Made by a program: the position numbers and the translations under genes. A stretch of 15,360 nucleotides of DNA, taken from assembly GCA_965662175.1 (NCBI GenBank), contig CBFIGT010000055.1, forward strand, positions 1 through 15,360, in the 5' to 3' direction. Of this stretch, positions 923-15,319 are shown one piece after another. Below the pieces are notes generated by a model. The model had not been told where the DNA came from. It saw only the letters and a list, made by a program, of their open reading frames with translations, and did no database searches. Origin of the DNA: Arcobacter sp. (GTDB lineage Bacteria; Campylobacterota; Campylobacteria; Campylobacterales; Arcobacteraceae). How positions within the stretch are numbered: position 1 is the first letter of the stretch; each line of letters opens with the position of its first letter.

Positions 923-942
923 GAGGATTCTCTTATATATTA
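913..942. terminator. Probable bidirectional terminator hairpin between convergent genes
   Basis: Perfect 13-bp inverted repeat TAATATATAAGAG-gatt-CTCTTATATATTA. It contains both stop codons (920-922 on +, 942-940 on -). Confidence 0.7.
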
Positions 943-2283
943 ATCTCCCCAAGGCTCTGGATTTCCTACTACTTTAAAGATCTTATTATTTACAGCATTA
1001 CAAACATCAATTGCTAGATTTACAAGTCCGCTATATGCTCCATAACTCACCTTTTTTTCTTGATTTACATCCACAAAGGCTACTTTTTTCTTTATGGCTG
1101 TATAAAGGCTTCTTCCCCCTGCTAATAAAATATCTATATTATGTTCATCTATTAGTTTTGCTTGTTCGCTTCCTGGGTCCTTCATCAGTATTTTTACATA
1201 TTTTGCACAAATCTCTTTATCTTCTAGGGTTGCTTTTTTTACGCTAGTTGCTACCACATCAATTCCTATATCTTGTAAGGCTGAAGCTATTGACCAGGTT
1301 TTATTTCCACCTGTATTTAAAATAGCTTTTTTACCCTCTAATATTTTTTTATAGGGTAATAAGGCTTTTTCTAGTTTTTCTTCCTCTTCTTGGATAACTT
1401 TTTCGGCTCTTTTTTTTAGCTCTTCATCTCCAAAGGCATTTACTATACTTTTTATGGCGTTTGTTGTATCTCGTTTTCCATAAAATGAGATACTTATATA
1501 TGGAATATTGTATTTTTCTTGCATTTTTCTTGTTAGGCTGATTAGTGATTTTGCACAAACTATTACATTTAGTTTTGCCCTATGGGCCATTTGGATATTT
1601 TCTATTCTTCCATCACCTGCTAATGTTGAGACGATTTTGATACCTATTTTTTCTAGTATTGGAGTGTATTGCCACATATCACCTGTCACATTATATTCAC
1701 CAATTAAATTTATTCCAAAAGGGTGAATCTCTTCTGGCTCTTTTGTACCTATTAGTTGATGTAAAACTGACTCCCCTCCAAGTCTTGAACCAAGGTTTTT
1801 ACCACCTACAAAACCAGGAGAGTGAATAACTACTACAGGGATACCATGTTTTTGTTCCATACGATTACAGACATTATCCATATCATCACCAATCATAGCT
1901 GTAACACAAGTTTCATATACAAAAATACCTTTTGGATTTTTATGTTCAACTATATAATCAATAGCCTCTTCTAGCTTTTTATCTCCACCAAAAATCACAT
2001 CATTTGTATTTACATCTGTTGTATAACCTGTAATTGTATTATTTTCACCTATATGTGAAGTTAGGGTTTGTCTTGTTTCCCAAGAAGCTCCTATACAAGT
2101 TGCAGGAGAGTGTACTAAGTGAATAACATCAGCATAAGGAAAAAGTGCAATTTGAGCTCCCTCAAATGCACAACCACCACTTGTAGCTCCTGGTTTTGGT
2201 TTGTCACATGATGACTTTTTTATTTTATTGTGAGAACAGGCACTCTCATTTAGTAGCTCTTGAATTAGTTTTTTGTTTACCAT
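940..2283 (-). CDS. nifE: NifE-like nitrogenase FeMo-cofactor scaffold subunit (stand-alone, no adjacent nifN)
   Basis: NifE signatures: CDKPKPGATSGGCAFEGA, HLVHSPATC, YETCVTAMIGDD, PGFVGGKNLGSRLGGE, NLIGEYNVTG, SFYG, TGGNKTWS, AGGR, DVNQE and C-terminal PW. Cys26/38/63/126 are retained. Confidence 0.88.
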   Translation of the reverse strand: MVNKKLIQELLNESACSHNKIKKSSCDKPKPGATSGGCAFEGAQIALFPYADVIHLVHSPATCIGASWETRQTLTSHIGENNTITGYTTDVNTNDVIFGGDKKLEEAIDYIVEHKNPKGIFVYETCVTAMIGDDMDNVCNRMEQKHGIPVVVIHSPGFVGGKNLGSRLGGESVLHQLIGTKEPEEIHPFGINLIGEYNVTGDMWQYTPILEKIGIKIVSTLAGDGRIENIQMAHRAKLNVIVCAKSLISLTRKMQEKYNIPYISISFYGKRDTTNAIKSIVNAFGDEELKKRAEKVIQEEEEKLEKALLPYKKILEGKKAILNTGGNKTWSIASALQDIGIDVVATSVKKATLEDKEICAKYVKILMKDPGSEQAKLIDEHNIDILLAGGRSLYTAIKKKVAFVDVNQEKKVSYGAYSGLVNLAIDVCNAVNNKIFKVVGNPEPWGD

Positions 2284-2318: not shown

Positions 2319-2334
2319 TGCAAAAACTATTCCA
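2319..2334 (-). promoter_or_regulatory. sigma54 (-24/-12) promoter for nifE-like gene
   Basis: Minus strand reads TGGAATAGTTTTTGCA (GG-N10-GC). Predicted +1 near 2308, about 25 nt before the ATG at 2283. Confidence 0.85.
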
Positions 2335-2344
2335 CTATCTATGA

Positions 2345-2360
2345 TGGAACAGTTTTTGCA
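2345..2360 (+). promoter_or_regulatory. sigma54 (-24/-12) promoter for the 2394-5382 operon
   Basis: TGGAACAGTTTTTGCA (GG-N10-GC). Predicted +1 near 2371, followed by RBS AAGGA and ATG 2394. Confidence 0.88.
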
Positions 2361-2393
2361 TAGGTGTATTTAACAAATACAAAAGGAAATAAA

Positions 2394-2780
2394 ATGATTG
2401 CGATACCACTAAGTAAGGATAGTTCAACAATAATTTCAGACCTATATGGAAATGCTCCATATTTTGCACTACTAGATTTAAACTCAGGATACTTTTCTGT
2501 AGCTGAAAATGAGGGTTGTGGAAATGGAATAGAAACTGCACAATGTGTCAAAGATTTAGGAGCAAGTTCAACTCTATTTTTTCATATGGGTGAGGGTGTT
2601 TATAAACAACTAGTAGAAGATGGTATAAAAGTTTATAGTGCATCAAAGGTTTTTTTGACTATTGAAGAGATATATAGAAGTTTTTTAAATAACACATGTA
2701 AGCTTGTAACAGAAGCTAATTATGAGCATCTATTAGATCCAGGGACTAGTTCTTGTTCTTGTGAGTGTGATAAAAACTAA
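2394..2780 (+). CDS. NifB/NifX-family (MTH1175-like) Fe-Mo cluster-binding protein with Cys-rich C-terminal tail
   Basis: MIAIP...ISDLYGNAPYFALLD...GNGIETAQCV...HMGEGVYKQLVEDGIKVY matches the NifX/NifB fold pattern; ends SCSCECDKN. Start moved from GTG 2364 to ATG 2394 because of the AAGGA RBS and because 2364 precedes the predicted +1. Confidence 0.8.
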   Translation: MIAIPLSKDSSTIISDLYGNAPYFALLDLNSGYFSVAENEGCGNGIETAQCVKDLGASSTLFFHMGEGVYKQLVEDGIKVYSASKVFLTIEEIYRSFLNNTCKLVTEANYEHLLDPGTSSCSCECDKN

Positions 2781-2800: not shown

Positions 2801-3772
2801 ATGGAAAAGAGTTTAGAATATTATCTTAAATTGGATTATCCATTTGAGTGTTATAGTGGTGAGCATGAAGTTGGAGATGCTTTTTTGGTTGAGTTTTTAG
2901 ATTTTGATATAAAAGCCTCAAGTGAAGATGTAGATGAAGCAATAGAAATCGCCCATGACTATTTGAAAGAGCATATAAAAAAAGAGTTAGAAGCTAAAAG
3001 AGAGCTACCAAAACCCAATGAAGGAAGAAGATTTATGAAACATAGAGAAGCATTAGCTGCATATAAAAGTAAAGATTTTGATAAAGCTTTATCAATTTGG
3101 AAAGAAGAAGCAAAACTTAAAAATGACCAAGCTATGGCAAATCTTGGTTTAATGTACTTAAAGGGTGAGGGTGTAGAAAAAGATTATACACTTGCAAAAG
3201 ATTGGTTTGAAAAAGCTAGCTCTTATGATAATGATTCAGCAAACTTCAATTTAGCACTTATGTATCAAACAAAAATAGGTGTTGAAGAGGATTTGGAAAA
3301 GGCAATAGATTATTTTAGACGAGCTGTTTCTAAAAACCATACCCAAGCAGCTTTTAGATTAGCACTTATTTTACTTCAAGATAGACAAAATATAGAGGGT
3401 GTTAAAGAGGGATTTGAGTGTATGTTAAAAGCTGCTAAAAGTGGTCACACTATGGCAACTATTCAACTAACAGGTAGTGATAAAGAGTTACCAAGTGATT
3501 GTGAGTTAAATGAGCAGTTTAGAGCCCAAGATTTAGCAAAACAATTAGAGATTATAAATGACACTTTAGATAGATTTGTAAGACCTATTTTACTTAAAGA
3601 TGGTGGAAATATTTTATTAATTGATTATAAAAACGAACCAGAGATTGAACTTAGACTTGCATATCAAGGTGCTTGTGTTGGGTGTTCTATTGCTAGTACT
3701 GGAACTTATGAGATGATAAAAGGGACTATGGAAAAAGTAATTGATCCAAGAGTTAGAGTATATATATTATGA
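2801..3772 (+). CDS. Fusion protein: HicB-like N-terminal domain + Sel1-like repeats + NifU C-terminal (Nfu) Fe-S domain
   Basis: N-term LEYYLKLDYPF..FLVEFLDF..EDVDEAIEIAHD..ELPKP resembles HicB. Sel1 repeats AMANLGLMYLKGEGVEKDYTLAKDWFEKAS, ANFNLALMY..IGVEEDLEKAIDYFRRA, plus a third degenerate one. C-term VRPILLKDGGNI..LAYQGACVGCS is an Nfu CxxC domain. Confidence 0.82.
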   Translation: MEKSLEYYLKLDYPFECYSGEHEVGDAFLVEFLDFDIKASSEDVDEAIEIAHDYLKEHIKKELEAKRELPKPNEGRRFMKHREALAAYKSKDFDKALSIWKEEAKLKNDQAMANLGLMYLKGEGVEKDYTLAKDWFEKASSYDNDSANFNLALMYQTKIGVEEDLEKAIDYFRRAVSKNHTQAAFRLALILLQDRQNIEGVKEGFECMLKAAKSGHTMATIQLTGSDKELPSDCELNEQFRAQDLAKQLEIINDTLDRFVRPILLKDGGNILLIDYKNEPEIELRLAYQGACVGCSIASTGTYEMIKGTMEKVIDPRVRVYIL

Positions 3773-4128
3773 AAATTGCATTTGCTTCAAAAGATAATAT
3801 TTATGTTAATCAACACTTTGGTTGGTGTAAAGAGTTTTTTATTTATGAGATAAAAGATGACTCTTATACTTTTGTTAAATCAGTTGATTCTTCTATAGAA
3901 ATTGATGATGAGGTAGAGAAACTAATGTATAAAATAGAGTGTTTAGAAGATAGTGATATTTTATATGTACAACAAATAGGACCAAAAGCTTCAAGAATGG
4001 TAAATGCCTCAAAAATATTTCCTATGCAATCTGGAAATGAAGAAGAGAAAATAGAAGATATTTTAAATAAATTGATAAAAATGCAAGAAAATCCTCCTAT
4101 ATGGATGAGAAGATTGATTGCAAATTAA
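3769..4128 (+). CDS. nifX: NifX-family FeMo-cofactor precursor carrier
   Basis: MKIAFASKD...VNQHFGWC..F.IYEI, ILYVQQIGPKA and C-terminal NPPIWMRRL are typical of NifX. ATGA overlap with the upstream gene indicates translational coupling. Confidence 0.78.
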   Translation: MKIAFASKDNIYVNQHFGWCKEFFIYEIKDDSYTFVKSVDSSIEIDDEVEKLMYKIECLEDSDILYVQQIGPKASRMVNASKIFPMQSGNEEEKIEDILNKLIKMQENPPIWMRRLIAN

Positions 4129-4143
4129 AATAATGGATAGCAA

Positions 4144-5382
4144 ATGGACACTTCAAAACCTTTAGAAATAGCACCAAATATCTATTTTATAGGCTCTTTT
4201 GACCCTGATATTAGAACCTTTGATATTATAATGAAAACAGCAAATGGTTCTTCATATAATGCCTATTTGATAAAAACATCTGAGGGTGTGATAATTGTTG
4301 ATACTGTAAAACTAGAGTTTCAAGATGAATTTTTTAAAAAAATAGAATCACTTTGTTCTTATGATGAGATAAAGTATGTGATTTCCCATCACTTAGAACC
4401 TGATCACGCAGGAGCAATTCCAGCTCTTATAAAAAAAGCCCCTCAAGCTAGAGTACTTATTTCTCCACAAGGTGGAAATATGTTAAAAGCTATAACTCAA
4501 AATGAGAACATAGATTTTGAAACAGTTTGGACAAATAAAAGAATAAAACTTGGAGATAAAACTATTAAGTTTCTTACAACGCCATATTTACACTGGCCTG
4601 AGACACTTAGCTCTTATGTTGAAGAGGATAATCTACTTTTTTCAGGGGATGTTTTTGGTAGCCACTATTATGATAAAAGATTGTTTGATGATTTAGTTGG
4701 TGATTTTTCTTATGCTTTTAAATACTATTATGACCATATTATGAGACCTTTTAAATCCTATGTTTTAAATGCTTTAAAACTTTATGATAAATTAGATATT
4801 CAAATAATAGCTACCCTTCATGGGCCTATTATTAGAGAAAAACCATATAAATATATAGAACTATATAGAAAATGGAGTTTAGCAAGACCTGATAATATTA
4901 AACAAAATAATAAAATCATCTCTATTTTTTATCTAACAAGTTATAAAAATACAAGAGATATGGCTGAGGCTATTTTTGAGGGTGCTGAAAGTAATAAAAG
5001 TATAACAGCTAGTTTATATGATTTAGCCTCTGTTGATGAAGCAAATATGATAAATATACTTGAAGAGAGTGATGGTATAATTATTGGAACACCTACAATT
5101 AATGCAGATGCACCAAAACCTGTTTGGGATTTACTCTCTTCTATGATGTATATTGAAAAAAGAGGAAAAACCGGTGGTTCTTTTGGTTCATTTGGTTGGA
5201 GTGGAGAAGCTCCTGATATGATTATTGAGAGAATGAAAGCCTTACATTTTAGGGTTCCCCCAATTGATCCTATGAAAATAAAACTAATTCCTACAAAAAA
5301 AGAGATTGAAGATTGTTTTGATTATGGTGTTGAGTTTGCTGAAATAGTAAATGGAAAAATGATTGAAATGACTATGAATTAA
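4144..5382 (+). CDS. fprA: FprA-family flavodiiron protein (metallo-beta-lactamase diiron domain + flavodoxin domain), O2/NO reductase
   Basis: GSSYNAYLI, DTVK, HHLEPDHAG, LHWPET, FSGDVFGSH and HGP diiron motifs. Flavodoxin motifs GTPTIN and FGSFGWSGEA. Confidence 0.92.
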   Translation: MDTSKPLEIAPNIYFIGSFDPDIRTFDIIMKTANGSSYNAYLIKTSEGVIIVDTVKLEFQDEFFKKIESLCSYDEIKYVISHHLEPDHAGAIPALIKKAPQARVLISPQGGNMLKAITQNENIDFETVWTNKRIKLGDKTIKFLTTPYLHWPETLSSYVEEDNLLFSGDVFGSHYYDKRLFDDLVGDFSYAFKYYYDHIMRPFKSYVLNALKLYDKLDIQIIATLHGPIIREKPYKYIELYRKWSLARPDNIKQNNKIISIFYLTSYKNTRDMAEAIFEGAESNKSITASLYDLASVDEANMINILEESDGIIIGTPTINADAPKPVWDLLSSMMYIEKRGKTGGSFGSFGWSGEAPDMIIERMKALHFRVPPIDPMKIKLIPTKKEIEDCFDYGVEFAEIVNGKMIEMTMN

Positions 5383-5437: not shown

Positions 5438-6085
5438 TTATAAAATATTTAATTTGTACCCTATTCCACCTTGAGAAACTATTGTATCTTTTGGTAGTTT
5501 TTTTCTTAATCTTTTGATTAAGGCTCTTATATTTTCATTTGTAGTTAAATCACCCTCCCAAACATACTGTTCAATTTGTTCAAAACTTATCACTTTGTTT
5601 AGATTTTTTGCAAATAAATTAAAGAGTAAAATCTCTTTTTTTGCTAATTTTATCTCATTTTTTTTAATATCTAAAAGTAACTCTTTTTCAATATTATAAA
5701 TAAGATTTTCTTTTAAAACTAACTCTTTTTTAGTGTAATTACAAAGTTTTTCAAGCTTTAACTCAAGCTCATAAATATAAAAAGGTTTTTTCAAATACTC
5801 ATCACAACCTCTTACATAAGCATCTTTTATTGTCTCTAACTCTACATTTGCACTTATTATGATTGAGGGTGTTTTATCATCCATAACTCTTATCTCTTTT
5901 AATAAAGTAAGACCATCAATTCCTGGAACATTTATATCTAAAATAAAACAGTCATATCCATTATATATGGCTTCAAGGGCTTCTTTTCCATTTTCAAACC
6001 AATCAATATGATAGTTTTTTGCCTCTAAAGCATCAATAATTAAACTTGATAATCTTTTATTATCTTCAAGTAATAATATTTTCAT
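5438..6085 (-). CDS. OmpR-family DNA-binding response regulator
   Basis: Receiver domain: LLLEDN, FILDINVPGIDG, IISA, YLKKPF. Winged helix: VWEG...IRALIKRLRKKL...GIGYKL. Overlaps the kinase stop by 4 bp. Confidence 0.93.
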   Translation of the reverse strand: MKILLLEDNKRLSSLIIDALEAKNYHIDWFENGKEALEAIYNGYDCFILDINVPGIDGLTLLKEIRVMDDKTPSIIISANVELETIKDAYVRGCDEYLKKPFYIYELELKLEKLCNYTKKELVLKENLIYNIEKELLLDIKKNEIKLAKKEILLFNLFAKNLNKVISFEQIEQYVWEGDLTTNENIRALIKRLRKKLPKDTIVSQGGIGYKLNIL

Positions 6086-7917
6086 AAGATATTCTCTCCA
6101 TTTTTTATAGATATTAATATTGAAGCACCCTCTTTTGATTTTAGAGCTTCTATTTTACCATTCATTTTATCTTCAATAAGTAGTTTTACCATGTATAAAC
6201 CAAATCCATCACCATCTTTTTTACTTGTGAAAAATGGTTCAAATACTTTTTCAAGATGTTCATTTTTTATTCCTATTCCATTATCTTTTATTAAAATGTG
6301 AGTAAAAAACTCTTTGGAATAGACATCTATTGAGATTTTACCCTCAATATTTTCACTCTTTTTTCTTTTTAGTATACTATCTCTACAGTTATTTATGATA
6401 CTTAAAATACACTGTTTAAACTCATTTGGGTAACCATATATTGTAAAAACCTTATCTTTCTCATAGTTTAAATCAACACTTATATAGTTATATTTTATAT
6501 TATGCTCAACTACTCTTAAAAGTTCAGTCATAGCTGATTTGATATCAAATTCACTTTTTGCTAGTGAGGGTTTTATAAAGCTTCTAAAATCATCAATAGT
6601 TTTTGTCATATATTGAACTTGAGTCATAATTTCATCTACAAACTCTTGGCTATCCTCTTTTGTAAGATCCCTTTTACCTCTTTTATATAAGAGTTCTTGG
6701 GCAATAGTTGAGATTTCAATTAGAGGCGTTTTCCATTGGTGGGCGATTGAGGTCATAATTTCACCAATTTCAGAGAGTTTTGAACGTTGGATTAAAAACT
6801 GTTCATTTTTCTTTTGTTTTGCAAGTTTTATTTCTAGTTTTACTCTTTTAACAATATTTACAATAAGTCCTATAATAAGTAGTATTAGTAATGGCATAAG
6901 TAAAAAAGCACTATCTATAAATTTTCGATATTTTTCAAAGAATCCTTTTGGCTTATTTATCAAAGTGGCTAACAAAGAAATATCAGAGTTATTCAAATTA
7001 TATTTTTTGATGATATTATAATCAAAATAGTATTTTGAGGTTGGGGTATCAATTTTTATTGAAGATGGTTTTGCGCCATTGATTATCTCAAATGCTTTTT
7101 TTGCAGCTAAAGAGCCTTGTTCTATTGGATTTACAACAATTCCACCAATTACACCCTCCCCCAAATGGATTTTATTTAGTACAAAAATAGGATATTTTGA
7201 GTTTTGAAAAAATACTCTTAGATTATTATATGGAATATATCTTCCTTTTATATCACTATATAAACTTGTAAATAAAACAGCACTATTTTTGGGTAAAGAG
7301 TTGACTTTTTCTTTTAAGCTTGTAATATCAATTTTATTATCATAAATGATTTTAAATCTATTTTCAAACTTTTTACTCGCACTTAAGATTTGATTTTGAA
7401 TAGCTTTTGAAGATAAGGTATTATCGCTTATTATGTACAAAGTATCTAGGTTTTTGATAGTTTTTTCGATTAATTCTATATTTTTCTCTATCTCTTTATA
7501 CTCAACTACTCCTGTAACGTATCTTCTTAAATCTTTAGGAATCATATCTTCTTTGAAGTTTTCTACTCCTGTAAAAACAATAGGAATATTGTTGAATATT
7601 TTTTTATGATGATTTAAAGCAAAATTAAAGGCATAATTATCAGCTGCAATTAGAACTTCATATTTTCTACTTGAGAATTTTTTTTCATAAAGATTCAATA
7701 AACTATCAAAATACTCTTTTGTGTTTATTTTTTTACTATCCATATACTCAACAGTTAGTTCATAATCAGGGTGTTTTTCTAAAATCTCTTTTATTCCATA
7801 GGTAATATTATCAGTCCATTTAAGACCCATATTATATGAGTGTAATAAAAGAATCTCTTTTTGAGAGTTAGCGTATGTATATGATAAAAATATAAGTAAA
7901 CTTAGTAGTAGTCGCAT
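6082..7917 (-). CDS. Sensor histidine kinase with periplasmic ABC-substrate-binding-like sensor domain
   Basis: Signal peptide MRLLLSLLIFLSYTYA (ATG 7917 preferred over 7941). Sensor motifs LLLHSY..GLKWTD, EYMDSK, PIVFTGV, GEGVIGG; one TM helix; H-box IAHQWKTP; N-box SIINNCRD; DNGIGI, FEPFFTSK, GDGFGL. Confidence 0.9.
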   Translation of the reverse strand: MRLLLSLLIFLSYTYANSQKEILLLHSYNMGLKWTDNITYGIKEILEKHPDYELTVEYMDSKKINTKEYFDSLLNLYEKKFSSRKYEVLIAADNYAFNFALNHHKKIFNNIPIVFTGVENFKEDMIPKDLRRYVTGVVEYKEIEKNIELIEKTIKNLDTLYIISDNTLSSKAIQNQILSASKKFENRFKIIYDNKIDITSLKEKVNSLPKNSAVLFTSLYSDIKGRYIPYNNLRVFFQNSKYPIFVLNKIHLGEGVIGGIVVNPIEQGSLAAKKAFEIINGAKPSSIKIDTPTSKYYFDYNIIKKYNLNNSDISLLATLINKPKGFFEKYRKFIDSAFLLMPLLILLIIGLIVNIVKRVKLEIKLAKQKKNEQFLIQRSKLSEIGEIMTSIAHQWKTPLIEISTIAQELLYKRGKRDLTKEDSQEFVDEIMTQVQYMTKTIDDFRSFIKPSLAKSEFDIKSAMTELLRVVEHNIKYNYISVDLNYEKDKVFTIYGYPNEFKQCILSIINNCRDSILKRKKSENIEGKISIDVYSKEFFTHILIKDNGIGIKNEHLEKVFEPFFTSKKDGDGFGLYMVKLLIEDKMNGKIEALKSKEGASILISIKNGENIL

Positions 7918-7959
7918 TTGTCTCTTTTGGTTTTCTTCCATTTTATCTAAAATTTCTTT

Positions 7960-7988
7960 ACTATAAAGGGATTAAAGCCCTTTATAGT
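7960..7988 (-). terminator. Hairpin after DASS transporter
   Basis: ACTATAAAGGG (7960-7970) and CCCTTTATAGT (7978-7988) form an 11-bp perfect stem with a 7-nt loop, just past the stop at 7997. The U-tail is weak. Confidence 0.65.
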
Positions 7989-7996
7989 CTTATTAT

Positions 7997-9403
7997 TTAG
8001 ATAAAAATCAATGAACCAATAATAATAGCACTTAGATATAAAGCTCCAAAGATTGCTCCTAAAGCCCACCATCTTCCTTGTGAAATATATCCAGCACCAT
8101 ACCAAATAGGTGAAGGACCTGTTGCATATGGAGTGATAATCCCCATAACCCCTAAACTACCAGCTAGTAAAATAGAGAATGGAATTAATTGCTCAGGTGT
8201 CATAAGTTTTACAGCAATTGCTAAGAATATTGGCATCAAAGCAGTTGTATGAGCTGTTGTACTAGCAAAGAAATAGTGTAATAAAAAGAACAATAACAAC
8301 ATGGAAATTATTAAACTTGTTGGAGTCATATTTACTAAATATGGCTCAGCGGTATTTCCAATCCAAGTTAAAACTCCAACTTTTTTAAGTCCTGAAGCCA
8401 TAGCTACAAGTGAAGCAAACCAGATTAATACATTAAACGCCGCTTTATTTGAAATAACATCATCCCATGAGATAATATTTGCTAATACCATTACACAAAC
8501 AACTGCAATAGCTGCTGTAGTAGAGTGAATACCAAATGTTTTACCAAATATCCAAAGAACCAATGCTACAACAGCAAGTCCTGCCATTAGATACTCTTTA
8601 GCTGTAACCGAACCTAATTTTTGTAACTCATCAGCTGCCCAAGCAGGAGCTTCGGGAGATTTTTTTTGTGTTGGTGGATATACAATATATACTAACCAAG
8701 GAGTTAGTAAAAATAGTGGTATCATAAGTGGTAACATAATTGAAGCCCAAGCTGACCATGAAATAACATTTCCTGTACCTTTGTTGATTAAATCAACTGC
8801 TAGTAAATTTGGAGCAAGTGCTGTTAAAAACATAGAGCTTGTAACACAAGTAATAGCAATAGCAACCCAAGAGATATAAGAACCTAATTTTCTAGGATCA
8901 TTATCAGGAGTTGAATCAAAAATCAAAGGAATATTACTAGCAATAGGATAGATAGTCCCTGCACTTCTTGCTGTATTTGATGGCATAAATGGTGCTAAAA
9001 TCAAATCAGAAAAAGCAACCGCATAACCAAGACCTAATGAACTTTTTCCCATATATTTAATCATAATAAGAGAAATTCTTCTTCCAAGACCTGTTTTTTT
9101 GTATCCAAGTGCAAACATAAAAGCTGCAAAAATAAGCCAAATAACTGTATTTGAAAACCCTGAAAGTGCCCATGAGATATTCTCTTTTGAAGATGGTCCC
9201 ATTAAACCTAAAACCGCTGTTAGTGAAATTCCTACCATACCAATTAGTGCTGCAGGAACTGGCTCTATTACAAGACCAACAACGACAGCAAAAAATATAG
9301 CAAGGAAATGCCAAGCGTTTACACTTAAACCCTCAGGTGCTGGAATAAACCAAAACACCACTAATACCGCTAGAGGTATTATATATTTAACTGTTTGTGA
9401 CAT
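7997..9403 (-). CDS. DASS-family anion permease (CitT/TtdT-like di/tricarboxylate transporter)
   Basis: Highly hydrophobic. Motifs PAPEGLS..AWH, LSGFSNTVIWLIF, GYKKTGLGRRI, PSNTARSAG, TSSMFLTALAPN, HYFFASTTAH, TPYATGPSPIWYGAGY. RBS AAGGAG. Confidence 0.93.
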   Translation of the reverse strand: MSQTVKYIIPLAVLVVFWFIPAPEGLSVNAWHFLAIFFAVVVGLVIEPVPAALIGMVGISLTAVLGLMGPSSKENISWALSGFSNTVIWLIFAAFMFALGYKKTGLGRRISLIMIKYMGKSSLGLGYAVAFSDLILAPFMPSNTARSAGTIYPIASNIPLIFDSTPDNDPRKLGSYISWVAIAITCVTSSMFLTALAPNLLAVDLINKGTGNVISWSAWASIMLPLMIPLFLLTPWLVYIVYPPTQKKSPEAPAWAADELQKLGSVTAKEYLMAGLAVVALVLWIFGKTFGIHSTTAAIAVVCVMVLANIISWDDVISNKAAFNVLIWFASLVAMASGLKKVGVLTWIGNTAEPYLVNMTPTSLIISMLLLFFLLHYFFASTTAHTTALMPIFLAIAVKLMTPEQLIPFSILLAGSLGVMGIITPYATGPSPIWYGAGYISQGRWWALGAIFGALYLSAIIIGSLIFI

Positions 9404-9429
9404 AATGTCTCCTTTAAATCTTATATCAA

Positions 9430-9462
9430 ATTATAAAATAGTTAAGGGGACAAAAATGAGAC
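9430..9462 (-). promoter_or_regulatory. Putative sigma70 -10 (TATAAT) with an OmpR-type direct repeat over the -35 region, upstream of the DASS gene
   Basis: Minus strand reads GTCTCatttttGTCCCcttaactatttTATAAT. The GTCYC half-sites are 11 bp apart. Confidence 0.5.
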
Positions 9463-9478
9463 TTTTAATAGGAAGTTT

Positions 9479-10303
9479 TTAGAATTTTAGATTTTTCAAA
9501 TAATCACTAATTTTAGGTATATTATCTTTTCTACAAACCAAACAAGTGGGGATATTTGCGGTTTTTTTATTTAGTTTTTTTATTTTTACATCATTTATAA
9601 ACCCTAGTTTTTCAACTAGATTTGTAGGTAGTAGTGTTTTTCCCATTCCAGCTTTTACACAAGCTAAAATTGTCTCTAAACTCCCAAAAGATAAGCTTTT
9701 ATCTACTATTATGCCTTTTTTCTCATAGTAGTCTTTTAAAAACTCATCATAAGCACAGCCCTCTTTAAATGATAAAATCACATTTGGTGTGTTTTCCTCT
9801 TTTGGCTCTACAATTGCAATCTCTTCTTCAAATTTTTGTAAAACCACTAACTCACTATATTTTGGTTCTCCACTTACAAAGGCTATATCAACTTTATAGT
9901 TTAAAATCAAATTTATCATATCTCTTGTGGTACCTGTTAGAAGTTCTAGTTGTATTTTGGGAAAATCTTGATGAAGTTTCATCAAAAAAGAGGATATTCT
10001 AACAGCTGCATTACAATCTGTTGAGCCAACTATTAGTTTTTGTTGTTTTATATTTTGCATATCTAAAACAGCTGCTTCAACTTTTTTCACTATTTCTACT
10101 GCATGTTTATAAAGTTTTTCCCCCTCAAGGGTTAAAATAACACCCTTTGGAATACGATGAAACAGAGTACAAGCTACGGATTTTTCTAGTTGTTTTATTC
10201 TTGATGTTACATTTGATTGGGCAAAACCTAGCTTTTTTGCTGCTAAGGTTACACTCTTTTCTTCAGCTACTACTACAAAAACTTTGAGAAGATTTGAATC
10301 CAT
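9479..10303 (-). CDS. LysR-family transcriptional regulator
   Basis: HTH MDSNLLKVFVVVAEEKSVTLAAKKLGFAQSNVTSRIKQLE..LFHRIPKGVILTLEG followed by a substrate domain. The start is likely ATG 10303 (AAGGA RBS), not 10330. Confidence 0.93.
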   Translation of the reverse strand: MDSNLLKVFVVVAEEKSVTLAAKKLGFAQSNVTSRIKQLEKSVACTLFHRIPKGVILTLEGEKLYKHAVEIVKKVEAAVLDMQNIKQQKLIVGSTDCNAAVRISSFLMKLHQDFPKIQLELLTGTTRDMINLILNYKVDIAFVSGEPKYSELVVLQKFEEEIAIVEPKEENTPNVILSFKEGCAYDEFLKDYYEKKGIIVDKSLSFGSLETILACVKAGMGKTLLPTNLVEKLGFINDVKIKKLNKKTANIPTCLVCRKDNIPKISDYLKNLKF

Positions 10304-10340
10304 ATCACTTTTCCTTATATCATCAATCACGATTTAATAT

Positions 10341-10370
10341 TTGACATTACATCACTTTTAGTGATATTAT
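10341..10370 (+). promoter_or_regulatory. sigma70 promoter of the MFS gene containing a LysR-box palindrome
   Basis: TTGACA (10341-46), 18-bp spacer, then TGa-TATTAT (extended -10, 10365-70). The palindrome ATCAC-tttta-GTGAT (10351-65, T-N11-A) lies in the spacer. Confidence 0.65.
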
Positions 10371-10402
10371 ACAAGAAATTATATATTTAAACAAGGCACT
10401 TT

Positions 10403-11584
10403 ATGAGTTTAAATCTTTTAGATAGAAATAATAACTTAAGTATTTTAATAGCAGGTATTTTTGCTGTAATTGTTGGGCTTGGTATCTCAAGATTTGTTTT
10501 TACATCACTTTTACCAAATATGTTAGATGGATTTTTGGATATTACCTTTGCTGGAATTTTAGCCTCAATTAATTTTGCTGGATATTTAAGTGGCTCTATT
10601 TTATCAATATTTATAAAAGATATAAATCAAAAAGTGATACTTTTTAGAATAGGACTTGTGTTAGTTATTATTTTAACTTTTATACAAGGGATAACTTTAA
10701 ATGAGACTATATGGATTATTTCTAGGGTAATGGCTGGTTTTGCTGGAGCTATGGCTTTTGTGGTTGGTTCTGCAATTGTTATGACAAAGCTTCAAATGGA
10801 GAGTAAAACAAAAGCTATGGGAATACATTTTTCAGGAATTGGTTTTTCTATTTTGACAACAGATTTAATTAGCAGGGGAGTAATTGATATTAGTTCATCA
10901 TGGCAATACTCTTGGTTAGTTTTATCTTTTGTGGCTTTGGTTTTATCACTTTATTCTGCTTATATTCTATCTTTTGATAAAAAAGTTGATACAAAAATAG
11001 TCAAACACAAAGTTGATAAATCAATATTTACGGTATTTGTAATAATTTTAATTATTGCATATTTTACAGAGGGTGTTGGTTTTGTAGTTCAAGGAACATT
11101 TTTACCTGATATTATCAACAACTTACCAGGTCTTGAGGGTTATGGAAATTTAACTTGGACATTAGTTGGACTAGCTGGAATTCCATCTTGTATTATTTGG
11201 TTAAGATTAGCTCATAAATATGGAAGTGTAAATATAATTATAATCGCTCTTGCTTTACAAACAGTGGGAATTTTAATACCAACTTTTACAAGTAATATGT
11301 ATATGAATCTATTTAGTGGTGTTTTATTTGGAGGTACTTTTGTTGGACTTGTAGGGCTTTTTATGACTTTAGGTGGACATTTAGCAAAAGGGAACCCTGT
11401 TGTTTTAATGGGTGCTTTAACCACATCTTATGGAATAGGTCAAGTTATAGCTCCTTTATATTCTGTATATTTAATTGATAAATTTGGTAACTATGATTAT
11501 GCTTTATATTTAACAGCATTTATAGTAATTTCAGGAATTATTTTACTTCTTTTTGCTAAAAGGTTTGACACAATTAAACATTAA
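10403..11584 (+). CDS. YbfB/YjiJ-family MFS transporter
   Basis: About 12 hydrophobic segments; GLGISRFVFTSLLPNM, AGILASINFAGYLSG, HFSGIG, AYFTEGVGF, YGIGQVIAP. Divergent from LysR. Confidence 0.9.
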   Translation: MSLNLLDRNNNLSILIAGIFAVIVGLGISRFVFTSLLPNMLDGFLDITFAGILASINFAGYLSGSILSIFIKDINQKVILFRIGLVLVIILTFIQGITLNETIWIISRVMAGFAGAMAFVVGSAIVMTKLQMESKTKAMGIHFSGIGFSILTTDLISRGVIDISSSWQYSWLVLSFVALVLSLYSAYILSFDKKVDTKIVKHKVDKSIFTVFVIILIIAYFTEGVGFVVQGTFLPDIINNLPGLEGYGNLTWTLVGLAGIPSCIIWLRLAHKYGSVNIIIIALALQTVGILIPTFTSNMYMNLFSGVLFGGTFVGLVGLFMTLGGHLAKGNPVVLMGALTTSYGIGQVIAPLYSVYLIDKFGNYDYALYLTAFIVISGIILLLFAKRFDTIKH

Positions 11585-11598
11585 AATCTTTTTTAAAG

Positions 11599-11784
11599 CT
11601 ATGATAAATTACTTAAGTTTGATACTTTATAAACAACATCTTTAAGTTCATTTAGTTTTTTGATAATTGCATCATTACAGTGTTTATCCATCTCATATCT
11701 TGTCTCCATAAAATCATAGATATTATCAATATTTGAAAATAACTCTTTTAATAACTGCTCTTTTATTTGCTCTTGGATGCTCAT
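11599..11784 (-). CDS. Small hypothetical helical protein (61 aa) with its own sigma54 promoter
   Basis: Occupies otherwise intergenic space. RBS GAGGA 6 nt before ATG, amphipathic helical pattern, and a GG-N10-GC promoter about 50 bp upstream. Confidence 0.8.
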   Translation of the reverse strand: MSIQEQIKEQLLKELFSNIDNIYDFMETRYEMDKHCNDAIIKKLNELKDVVYKVSNLSNLS

Positions 11785-11831: not shown

Positions 11832-11847
11832 TGCAAATTTTATTCCA
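11832..11847 (-). promoter_or_regulatory. sigma54 promoter for the 61-aa ORF
   Basis: Minus strand reads TGGAATAAAATTTGCA (GG-N10-GC). Confidence 0.82.
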
Positions 11848-13415: not shown

Positions 13416-14531
13416 ATGTTTATCATCAATGACACCACATTAAGAGATGGAGAACAAGCTCCTTATGTAGCATTTAATACAAAAGAGAAGTTAGATATTG
13501 CACAAAAGTTGTATGAAGCGGGAGCTGATGAACTTGAAGTTGGTATTCCTGCAATGGGGAAAAAAGAGCAAGATGATTTAAAAGAGATTCTTGCACTTAA
13601 TCTTCCTATTCAAATTATGAGTTGGAATCGTGCTACTTTTAGTGATTTGGAAGCCTCTTTAAGTTGCGGACTTAAAGCAGTTGATTTATCTATTCCTGTT
13701 TCTGATATTTTAATTGATGTGAAATTTGGTGGTGATAAACAAAAGGTTTTAGCACAACTTGAAAAAGTTGTTCTTGAAGCTAAAAAAGAGGGTCTTTTTG
13801 TTTGTATTGGTGGTGAAGATTCAAGTAGAGCTGATATGAATTTTTTAAAAGAGCTTTTGGCTTTTGGAAAGAGTCTTGGAGCAAATAGATTTAGATATTG
13901 TGATACGGTTGGAATTTTAACTCCAAATAAAACTTATCAAAATATCAGTGAACTTACAAGCTTAGATTTACTTGATATAGAGATGCACACACACAATGAT
14001 TTTGGTATGGCAACGGCAAATGCTATTTCAGGGTTTGAAGCAGGAGCAAAAAGTGCTAATACTACAGTTATTGGCTTGGGTGAGCGCGCGGGCAACGCAT
14101 CTTTTGAACAAGTACTTATGAGTTTGGCAAGACTTTTAGGGAAAAATAGTGAGATTAAATCTGATAAATTAAAGTCACTAATTCAAACAGTTGGAAAAGC
14201 TTCAAATAGAAGAATTGATTCTAACTTACCTATTGTTGGTGAATATATCTTTTCACATGAATCTGGAATTCATGTAAATGGTATGATGAAATCAAAAAGT
14301 GCTTATGAACCTTTTACTCCAACAGAAGTTGGACTTCAAAGATGTTTTCCTATTGGTAAACATTCAGGAACCTCAACTCTACTTTATCATTTACAAACAT
14401 TAGGAATAGAAGCTTCAAAAGAGTCCTTACAAAAACTTTTACCTCTTATAAGAGAGATAGTAACAAATAGAAAAAGAGTTCTTGATACAAAAGAATTGGA
14501 AGAGTTATACTTATGTTCGTTGGATATTTAA
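13416..14531 (+). CDS. nifV: Homocitrate synthase
   Basis: DTTLRDGEQ, ELEVGIPAMG, GGEDSSRAD, RFRYCDTVG, EMHTHNDFGMATAN, GLGERAGNA, FSHESGIH, GKHSG, plus nif context. Start ATG 13416 (AAGG RBS) is preferred over 13398, which sits at the predicted +1. Confidence 0.93.
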   Translation: MFIINDTTLRDGEQAPYVAFNTKEKLDIAQKLYEAGADELEVGIPAMGKKEQDDLKEILALNLPIQIMSWNRATFSDLEASLSCGLKAVDLSIPVSDILIDVKFGGDKQKVLAQLEKVVLEAKKEGLFVCIGGEDSSRADMNFLKELLAFGKSLGANRFRYCDTVGILTPNKTYQNISELTSLDLLDIEMHTHNDFGMATANAISGFEAGAKSANTTVIGLGERAGNASFEQVLMSLARLLGKNSEIKSDKLKSLIQTVGKASNRRIDSNLPIVGEYIFSHESGIHVNGMMKSKSAYEPFTPTEVGLQRCFPIGKHSGTSTLLYHLQTLGIEASKESLQKLLPLIREIVTNRKRVLDTKELEELYLCSLDI

Positions 14532-15319
14532 GAAACAACTTTGAAGAGGATATCTCTTTGATTTTGGAAAGTGATAAGTTATTTGAACTTGAGTTACTAA
14601 AACAAACATATAATGTTTTTCCTCAATACTGTTTTGCTGCTTATGAAAATGGAAAAATAGTAGGTGTAATAAGTGCTTATAGCTTCAACAAACATATATT
14701 TATAAATGTAATAAAAGCTTTGGATTCCCATCAAGATGTTTTGACAAGACTTATAAAACTATTAGTTCAAAATGTTTCTAGTATGAATATTTTTGTATTG
14801 ATTGAACAAAAGTTAAGTTCATATTTTGAGGCATTTAAATTCCAAGAGCACTCTAAATTTATTAGATTTATGCATAGTGGAGAGGCAGTTGCTTTTAATT
14901 TCTCTAATTCAACTGCAAAACAGGTCAATGGAGAAAATTATGAGGATATCTCTAAAAAAATAGATAAAGAGGTCTTTTTAGATGATAGGGAAGAGTATAT
15001 AAAAAATGATTGTACTTTTTCTAACTCTTTAAAACTATCTACTACAAGTGGATTTTTACACTCTTATGTTGTAAATAAAAGATATATAAGAGTTTCACCT
15101 TGGCTTATGCAAAGTGAATCTTATTTGGATGCTGAAAAACTTCTTCGAGGAGTTTTATATTATAGAGGATTAAAAAAGATTTTTGGATATGCGCCCAAAG
15201 AGATAAAAGAGATAAGTGAGTTATATGAGAGTTATAAGTTTAAAAAAGATGAGGTTTTTAGCCTGCTTTATTTAGGGGAAAAACCAGAACTTAAACTTGA
15301 AAATCTATATGCAATTTAA
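14513..15319 (+). CDS. Hypothetical protein, probable degenerate two-domain GNAT-like fold
   Basis: FPQYCFAAYENGKIVGVISAYSF resembles GNAT beta2-beta3; C-terminal D..VF..DR and 'SPW...AEKLL' resemble YitH-type second domains. No R/Q-x-x-G-x-G motif seen. Overlaps the nifV end by 19 bp. Confidence 0.6.
   Translation: MFVGYLRNNFEEDISLILESDKLFELELLKQTYNVFPQYCFAAYENGKIVGVISAYSFNKHIFINVIKALDSHQDVLTRLIKLLVQNVSSMNIFVLIEQKLSSYFEAFKFQEHSKFIRFMHSGEAVAFNFSNSTAKQVNGENYEDISKKIDKEVFLDDREEYIKNDCTFSNSLKLSTTSGFLHSYVVNKRYIRVSPWLMQSESYLDAEKLLRGVLYYRGLKKIFGYAPKEIKEISELYESYKFKKDEVFSLLYLGEKPELKLENLYAI

Follow-up and report, generated by a model that had tools for sequence, protein, structure and literature searches.

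A gene in the nif region of Arcobacter sp. encodes a three-part fusion protein that we propose to be a nif-dedicated, Nfu-type Fe-S carrier, with clients chosen by its Sel1 repeats and with a docking surface derived from a HicB antitoxin fold on the longer of two isoforms. We put the probability of this combined reading at roughly 0.6. The window, that is, the whole stretch of 15,360 nucleotides analysed, is a nif region holding a nifE-like gene, NifB/X-family genes, a flavodiiron gene, nifB and nifV. Features of the fusion gene and its operon are collected in Table 1.

Table 1. Features of the fusion gene and its predicted operon, in positions of the window.
Feature	Position	Strand	Basis or remark
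Predicted second sigma-54 site, back to back with the first, for the nifE-like gene	2320-2334	-	
Predicted sigma-54 (-24/-12) promoter of the operon	2345..2360	+	GG-N10-GC match
NifB/NifX-family (PF02579) gene, first of the operon	2364..2780	+	Likely start 2394
HicB-fold, Sel1 and Nfu fusion gene, long form, 323 aa	2801..3772	+	ORF, Pfam, AF2 model, homologue search
HicB-derived domain, aa 1-72	2801..3016	+	Profile and structure comparison
Predicted internal ribosome-binding site AAGGA (3021-3025) and in-frame ATG (Met79, 3035)	3021..3037	+	Conservation
Helical hairpin and about three Sel1 repeats, aa 79-224	3035..3472	+	Pfam PF08238, Foldseek
Nfu domain, aa 244-323	3530..3769	+	C292-x-x-C295 at 3674-3685
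NifX-like gene, overlapping the stop codon of the fusion gene (ATGA)	3769..4128	+	TIGR02663 E 5e-28, below its cut-off
Flavodiiron protein (FprA/flavorubredoxin-like) gene, last of the operon	4144..5382	+	

The initial annotation of this DNA had described a fusion of a HicB-like domain, about three Sel1 repeats and an Nfu domain with a CxxC motif, and this layout was borne out by the open reading frame, by Pfam and by an AF2 model; it is also common to the genomes of many relatives. Pfam searches matched the Sel1 repeats with an E-value of 2e-19 (PF08238, 69.7 bits against a cut-off of 30.7) and the NifU/Nfu domain at residues 252-320 with an E-value of 1e-13 (PF01106, 51.6 bits against a gathering score of 27). 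The AF2 model, built with 38 sequences, had a pLDDT of 88.9 and a pTM of 0.77, and consisted of an alpha-beta-beta-beta-alpha N-terminal domain, four helical hairpins plus a cap, and then the Nfu fold; its CxxC loop (residues 292-299) was of low confidence. The top 10 Foldseek matches of the Sel1 part were all Sel1 proteins. Homologue searches returned 356 matches at E <= 0.001. Because the best 120 of these 356 were all full-length, with at least 73% identity, the fusion is not an artefact confined to one genome. Names among the matches listed came from Halarcobacter, Arcobacter, Aliarcobacter and Marinarcus, and 50 genome loci stretched the range to Sulfurimonas, Sulfurovum, Nitratifractor and Sulfurospirillum. 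Databases name the protein 'NifU family protein' or, wrongly, 'beta-lactamase', and one protein (P0213) already bears an automatic label in which NfuA stands together with 'RNase H-like HicB family'. When longer fusions were sought, which is weak evidence, 80 proteins were listed, none with PF01106, and a metagenome scan with one of the proteins (P0129) gave five loci, none full-length. In one genome (loci L003/L022), the first helical hairpin is interrupted by an in-frame TAA at about codon 94, downstream of both the 5' start and the predicted internal start, which marks either a pseudogene or an assembly error.

By its sequence, the fusion protein is of the Nfu type, with both a PF01106 domain, matched by 38/38 aligned family members, and a CxxC motif in which C292 was conserved in 73/73 and C295 in 72/73 sequences, the single exception being a truncated contig. 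Two closer assignments were rejected. The degenerate A-type N-terminal domain of NfuA proper was not found, and the NfuA model TIGR03341 covered only residues 246-312 (18.7 bits against a cut-off of 269.35). In NifU proper, the Nfu domain is preceded by U-type and ferredoxin-like domains, and these are missing; the NifU model TIGR02000 covered only residues 209-320 (27.7 bits against a cut-off of 273.3). The Nfu domain is 36% identical to the NifU C-domain encoded in the same genome. Three Nfu domains were counted in 15/15 nifH-positive and two in 14/14 nifH-negative Arcobacteraceae genomes and, because carriers of the fusion gene keep both housekeeping proteins, NifU and the small Nfu, the fusion protein represents a third Nfu paralogue. 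The single nifS-nifU pair of the Arcobacter sp. assembly lies on a contig without other nif genes, outside the nif contigs inspected; a small Nfu and A-type carriers were sought in this 94% complete assembly and not found.

Profile and structure comparisons identify residues 1-72 as a HicB-derived domain. As a single sequence, the domain matched PF15919 with an E-value of 0.1 (13.2 bits against a cut-off of 27) and S. pneumoniae HicB (5YRZ) with an E-value of 0.15. A profile of 31 N-terminal domains matched 5YRZ with an E-value of 0.006 and found the genome's own hicB with an E-value of 6.9e-6 (hhalign 95.3% over 63 columns). Run against 1.84 billion representatives, the profile gave 26 matches, several of them HicB proteins with an RHH domain; the remainder include repeat proteins aligned over one short stretch. 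A model of the domain alone reached a pLDDT of 90.1 and showed no strand after helix 1. When this fold was compared with 48,161 chains using VIA-align, the top six were TTHA0281 (Z 8.0) and five HicB structures (Z 7.4-6.1), with dsRBD folds close behind (Z <= 6.0). ESM Atlas gave HicB-named clusters as best matches (0.88), a lead only. Foldseek, the search put forward with the initial annotation, returned no match for the domain at E <= 0.001, but the HicB-like N-terminus that the annotation had described stood on the profile matches and on the first ranks of TTHA0281 and HicB structures. Its remarks that the protein has no DNA-binding tail and that no hicA lies within the window were also correct, as was the absence of the PGC..G motif from the Arcobacter sp. 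protein, though distant orthologues keep the more HicB-like 'FPDIKGVGDTFEEA'. G25, D26, K38 and E46 were invariant across 40 aligned long forms, and the domain is acidic (17 D/E against 4 K/R in residues 1-58).

The fusion gene is predicted to belong to a sigma-54-dependent nif accessory operon and to be coupled to the NifX-like gene. GG-N10-GC sites occurred three times in the window against 0.20 expected from shuffling, and other nif operons of the genome are preceded by similar sigma-54-type sites. No sigma-54 site was found within the HicB part of any long gene in a set of 50 loci, and a scan for sigma-70 promoters and terminators remained at chance level. The recurring gene order among relatives is a NifB/X-like gene, an optional ferredoxin or cowN gene, the fusion gene, the NifX-like gene and fprA, sometimes followed by nifQ-nifS-nifU. 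NifB/NifX-family (PF02579) homologues were present in 46/55 clustered loci, cowN lay directly upstream of the fusion gene in several loci, and a NifX-like gene followed on the same strand in 81/104 loci, at a distance of 30 nucleotides or less in 42, some loci repeating a genome. FprA was found in 9/10 nifH-positive and 0/10 nifH-negative Arcobacteraceae genomes tested, and the flavodiiron protein is a candidate nitrogenase-protecting O2/NO reductase.

Several other features of these loci were observed. In clade II (L087-L097, L115-L144), a TOBE-domain gene and a ferredoxin gene lie between the fusion gene and the NifX-like gene. The nifE-like gene of the window (940-2283, minus strand) scored 500.7 with TIGR01283 against a cut-off of 505.1; variable inserted genes separate nifE-like gene and nifN in many Arcobacteraceae loci (L021-L070), and here nifN is on contig C42. 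Between fprA and nifB (5438-11584) lie a two-component pair, a DASS transporter, a LysR regulator and a YbfB-type MFS gene; this block is missing from most relatives, and a LysR/MFS pair occupies the same place in a few. Divergent from nifB is a 61-amino-acid ORF (11599-11784, minus strand) with no Pfam family above cut-off, homologues in 26/55 clustered loci and its own sigma-54-type site at 11833-11847, an uncharacterised nif-linked small protein. A tandem GNAT-like protein (14513-15319) overlaps nifV and has homologues in 28/55 clustered loci, and a conserved 119-amino-acid ORF lies between nifH and nifD (C42:2426-2785; L065:4102-4461).

The fusion gene is confined to nitrogen-fixing Campylobacterota. 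Among 37 Arcobacteraceae genomes, it was present in 16/16 nifH-positive genomes (12 long, 4 short) and in 0/21 nifH-negative ones; 24 genomes of other families included five nifH-positive genomes without it. A phylum sample of 401 genomes gave 31 matches, one of which was to Sel1 repeats only, and the other 30 all came from genomes with nifH. None of the 350 nifH-negative genomes of this sample had the gene, five candidates having been scored per genome and 276 genomes belonging to two families almost without nif. Of its 50 nifH-positive genomes, 20 were unmatched at first and one was then found to hold a 152-amino-acid form; because 19/50 remained without a match, the fusion gene is dispensable. 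Twelve of the 19 belong to one genus that retains the NifX-like and FprA genes, and at the two loci inspected the fusion gene was absent. In a second family of 251 genomes, 96 matched one query, 103 had nifH and 83 had both; when the search was repeated, 10/20 nifH-only genomes proved to carry the gene. The 13 carriers without detected nifH were all drafts, and nifB was present in eight of them and also missing in five. One carrier (L094) had no nif gene within 1.5 kb.

All three domains are under purifying selection, with pooled dN/dS values, from 10 pairs, of 0.096 for HicB, 0.107 for Sel1 and 0.069 for Nfu, and the HicB region stays in frame despite a variable linker length. The number of Sel1 repeats varies, giving forms of about 245, 207, 166 and 144 amino acids. 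A quick, unrooted Sel1-Nfu tree of 73 rows (L003, L045 and L066 left out, L092 mislabelled as long) required at least 10 changes between long and short forms, six of them forced by well-supported branches, with short forms nested among long ones. Because both deep clades of this unrooted tree share the HicB-domain signature, we infer that the domain was captured once and then lost repeatedly. The losses are clean: no credible HicB remnant was found upstream of short genes at 15 loci, and apparent decayed remnants, with stops inside the matches, were rejected as spurious alignments to cowN. Comparison of loci by eye revealed no gene lost together with the HicB domain, and therefore no partner is pointed to.

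An internal start at the HicB-Sel1 junction, as judged from its conservation, is probably real, and translation from Met79 would give a 245-amino-acid Sel1-Nfu isoform. The Shine-Dalgarno (SD) energy at Met79 was -6.1 kcal/mol, a stronger value than at 96% of the internal Met codons of the genome; at the 5' start, which has no SD-like signal, it was -0.8 kcal/mol. Since Met208 also has a good SD energy, this measure by itself was not accepted as a test, and codon resampling was used in its place. AGGA or GGAG followed by ATG was present at the junction of 50/54 long genes, compared with 20.6 predicted by codon usage. Split by clade, and with amino acids and local codon usage taken into account, the counts were 32/36 against 12.9 expected in clade I and 18/18 against 7.9 in clade II, related genomes in these counts not being independent; with one gene per subclade, the motif was present in 16/18 against 6.8 expected (0 of 200,000 simulations). 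Control Met codons showed no excess (Met208, 2/36 against 10.7; elsewhere, 21/441 against 25.7). The motif is encoded as E-G, K-E, K-D, Q-E, E-E, R-R, R-K and others, so that all three reading frames are used. Bias at single codons was less distinctive, with G75 at 40/42 against 24.3 expected nearly equalled by G269 at 37/42 against 23.5, and the junction did not stand out in RNA folding (z -0.66 to 0.47). The junction Met was kept in 41/42 clade I genes and in 61/67 clade II proteins, the latter count coming from a window test and possibly one too high; it is missing in L055, P0124, P0129, P0157-P0161 and P0210. Natural short genes start at the equivalent of Met79, and several share upstream letters with long genes. 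Because natural short forms begin at the junction Met, the gene product is likely to be made as two isoforms, with and without the HicB domain.

In the reading that we propose, the CxxC motif would hold a cluster of the [4Fe-4S] or [2Fe-2S] type, probably as a bridge between two Nfu domains, and would receive it from NifS/NifU, as the known biology of Nfu proteins suggests. The cluster would then be handed to Nif clients such as NifB, NifH, NifEN, NifQ or a co-encoded ferredoxin, a transfer that may be most useful under O2 exposure. The Sel1 repeats would, in analogy to NfuA and its degenerate A-type domain, select the client. The internal start would provide a constitutive Sel1-Nfu core; the long form would carry the HicB-fold domain in addition, as an optional, acidic surface on which a non-toxin partner could dock. 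We have good confidence that the gene product is a nif-dedicated carrier, whose clients the Sel1 repeats would choose, and favour with somewhat less assurance the HicB-derived docking surface of the long isoform. A more speculative extension, which we offer tentatively, is that nitrogen fixation in Campylobacterota took up an antitoxin domain at an early stage and made it a switchable address tag. One nif gene would then yield two Fe-S carriers, the old toxin-binding face would dock a nitrogenase-maturation protein, and the ratio between the starts would set the destination of the cluster.

The fused domain could still be an antitoxin whose release of a HicA-like RNase depends on Fe-S or O2 status, as the initial annotation had suggested beside its other proposal of a domesticated antitoxin fold. 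In S. pneumoniae HicB, Glu47 blocks the histidine of HicA (PMC6159526), and the equivalent position, mapped through a weak HMM alignment, was E or D in 34/46 rows (one mislabelled) and did not vary among 27 clade II proteins; a hicA is also present in the genome. However, hicA was found in 4/12 long-form genomes, about the background level of 13/49 other genomes, and the single hicA of the Arcobacter sp. genome, on another contig, has its own adjacent hicB. Moreover, 12 rows have T, K, N, A, G, M or Q in place of the Glu47-equivalent residue, and loss of the domain has occurred repeatedly. We therefore regard a HicA-coupled sensor as highly improbable. The complete hicAB pair of this genome (L071:1114-1764, contig C150) encodes a HicB with an N-terminal helix motif nearly the same as that of the fused domain. 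Because the Glu47-equivalent position is mostly acidic, the old HicB binding face may still be in use, with the cognate toxin usually missing. Of the two initial proposals, then, the sensor is poorly supported, while the other, Fe-S delivery by a protein with a domesticated antitoxin fold, agrees with the HicB ancestry, the purifying selection, the invariant CxxC and the strict nif linkage; the initial reading had overlooked the nif context, the repeated loss of HicB and the conserved internal start signal at the junction.

Two further explanations deserve more weight than a HicA sensor, and both are nonetheless unlikely. It is possible that the protein serves in the control of O2 damage, its CxxC repairing oxidised clusters or forming a thiol-disulfide relay beside FprA and CowN. 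The flavodiiron gene that ends the operon and the cowN gene just upstream in several loci would suit this role, as would the dispensability of the gene in some diazotrophs and the reported requirement for NfuA under oxidative stress (PMC8593673). FprA does not co-vary with the fusion gene, however, being present in 12/12 genomes of the genus that is without the gene and not found in 12/29 carriers tested, and the domain is Nfu rather than thioredoxin-like. Slightly less probable again is a single functional product, either with HicB as a passenger that is selected but binds nothing, or with a junction motif that makes ribosomes pause. This would account for the several losses of the HicB domain with no visible consequence, and for the long forms from which the junction Met is missing; the long form may also be a minor product, because an SD-like signal is missing at the 5' start (-0.8 against -6.1 kcal/mol at Met79). 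A passenger, on the other hand, fits poorly with a domain held in frame despite the variable linker, with a dN/dS of 0.096 and four invariant residues (G25, D26, K38 and E46), and a pause site needs no ATG at start-site spacing, nor would it have short genes beginning at that very Met with the same upstream letters.

In many Campylobacterota, one NifS/NifU system serves all Fe-S proteins. The fusion gene is a direct candidate for the routing of clusters to nitrogenase in this phylum, members of which are reported to be dominant in dark nitrogen fixation in mangrove sediments (PMC11474244). It also offers a clear example of purifying selection acting on an antitoxin fold that has no toxin linked to it, and an example of an internal start signal whose conservation spans all three reading frames. 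No description of a HicB-Sel1-Nfu fusion was found in the open-access literature searched. NifU does not occur in the searched text of a survey of HicA/HicB classes (bioRxiv 2023.12.08.570793), and nifU and Sel1 are absent from the main text of two studies of isolates from these groups (PMC11474244 and PMC12029903) and from two supplements of the former; the gene-cluster figures of both papers may label the gene. The fusion is real, and as a variant of Nfu-type carriers it is apparently undescribed and has two unusual features.

Among known carriers, Nfu domains are reported to bind a bridging cluster and to transfer [4Fe-4S], and the cofactor-free extra domain of NfuA to target apo-proteins (PMC8593673). 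The fusion protein resembles NfuA of E. coli and A. vinelandii in having a C-terminal Nfu domain with CxxC preceded by a cofactor-free domain from another family; it differs in that the extra domains are Sel1 repeats and a HicB fold instead of a degenerate A-type domain, and in being nif-linked rather than a general stress carrier. With NifU and the small Nfu proteins such as YutI it shares the PF01106 domain and CxxC, but it lacks the N-terminal and central domains of NifU, and its carriers keep NifU and a small Nfu besides. The one-domain YutI of Paenibacillus is reported to support nitrogenase, its deletion halving activity (PMC8038749), and the small Nfu of the H. pylori NIF system is described as a dispensable carrier (PMC8144621). 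The N-terminal domain resembles that of HicB and TTHA0281 (UPF0150) in its partial RNase H-like fold and in detectable sequence homology; unlike HicB, it lacks an RHH or HTH tail and a linked hicA, and its model shows no strand following helix 1. As described for E. coli infB, clpB, mrcB and arcB (bioRxiv 10.1101/520783), an SD sequence and an in-frame ATG would yield an N-terminally shorter isoform. Unlike those E. coli internal starts, the Met79 start is deduced from conservation alone, would remove exactly one domain, and has a counterpart in genes that naturally encode the short form.
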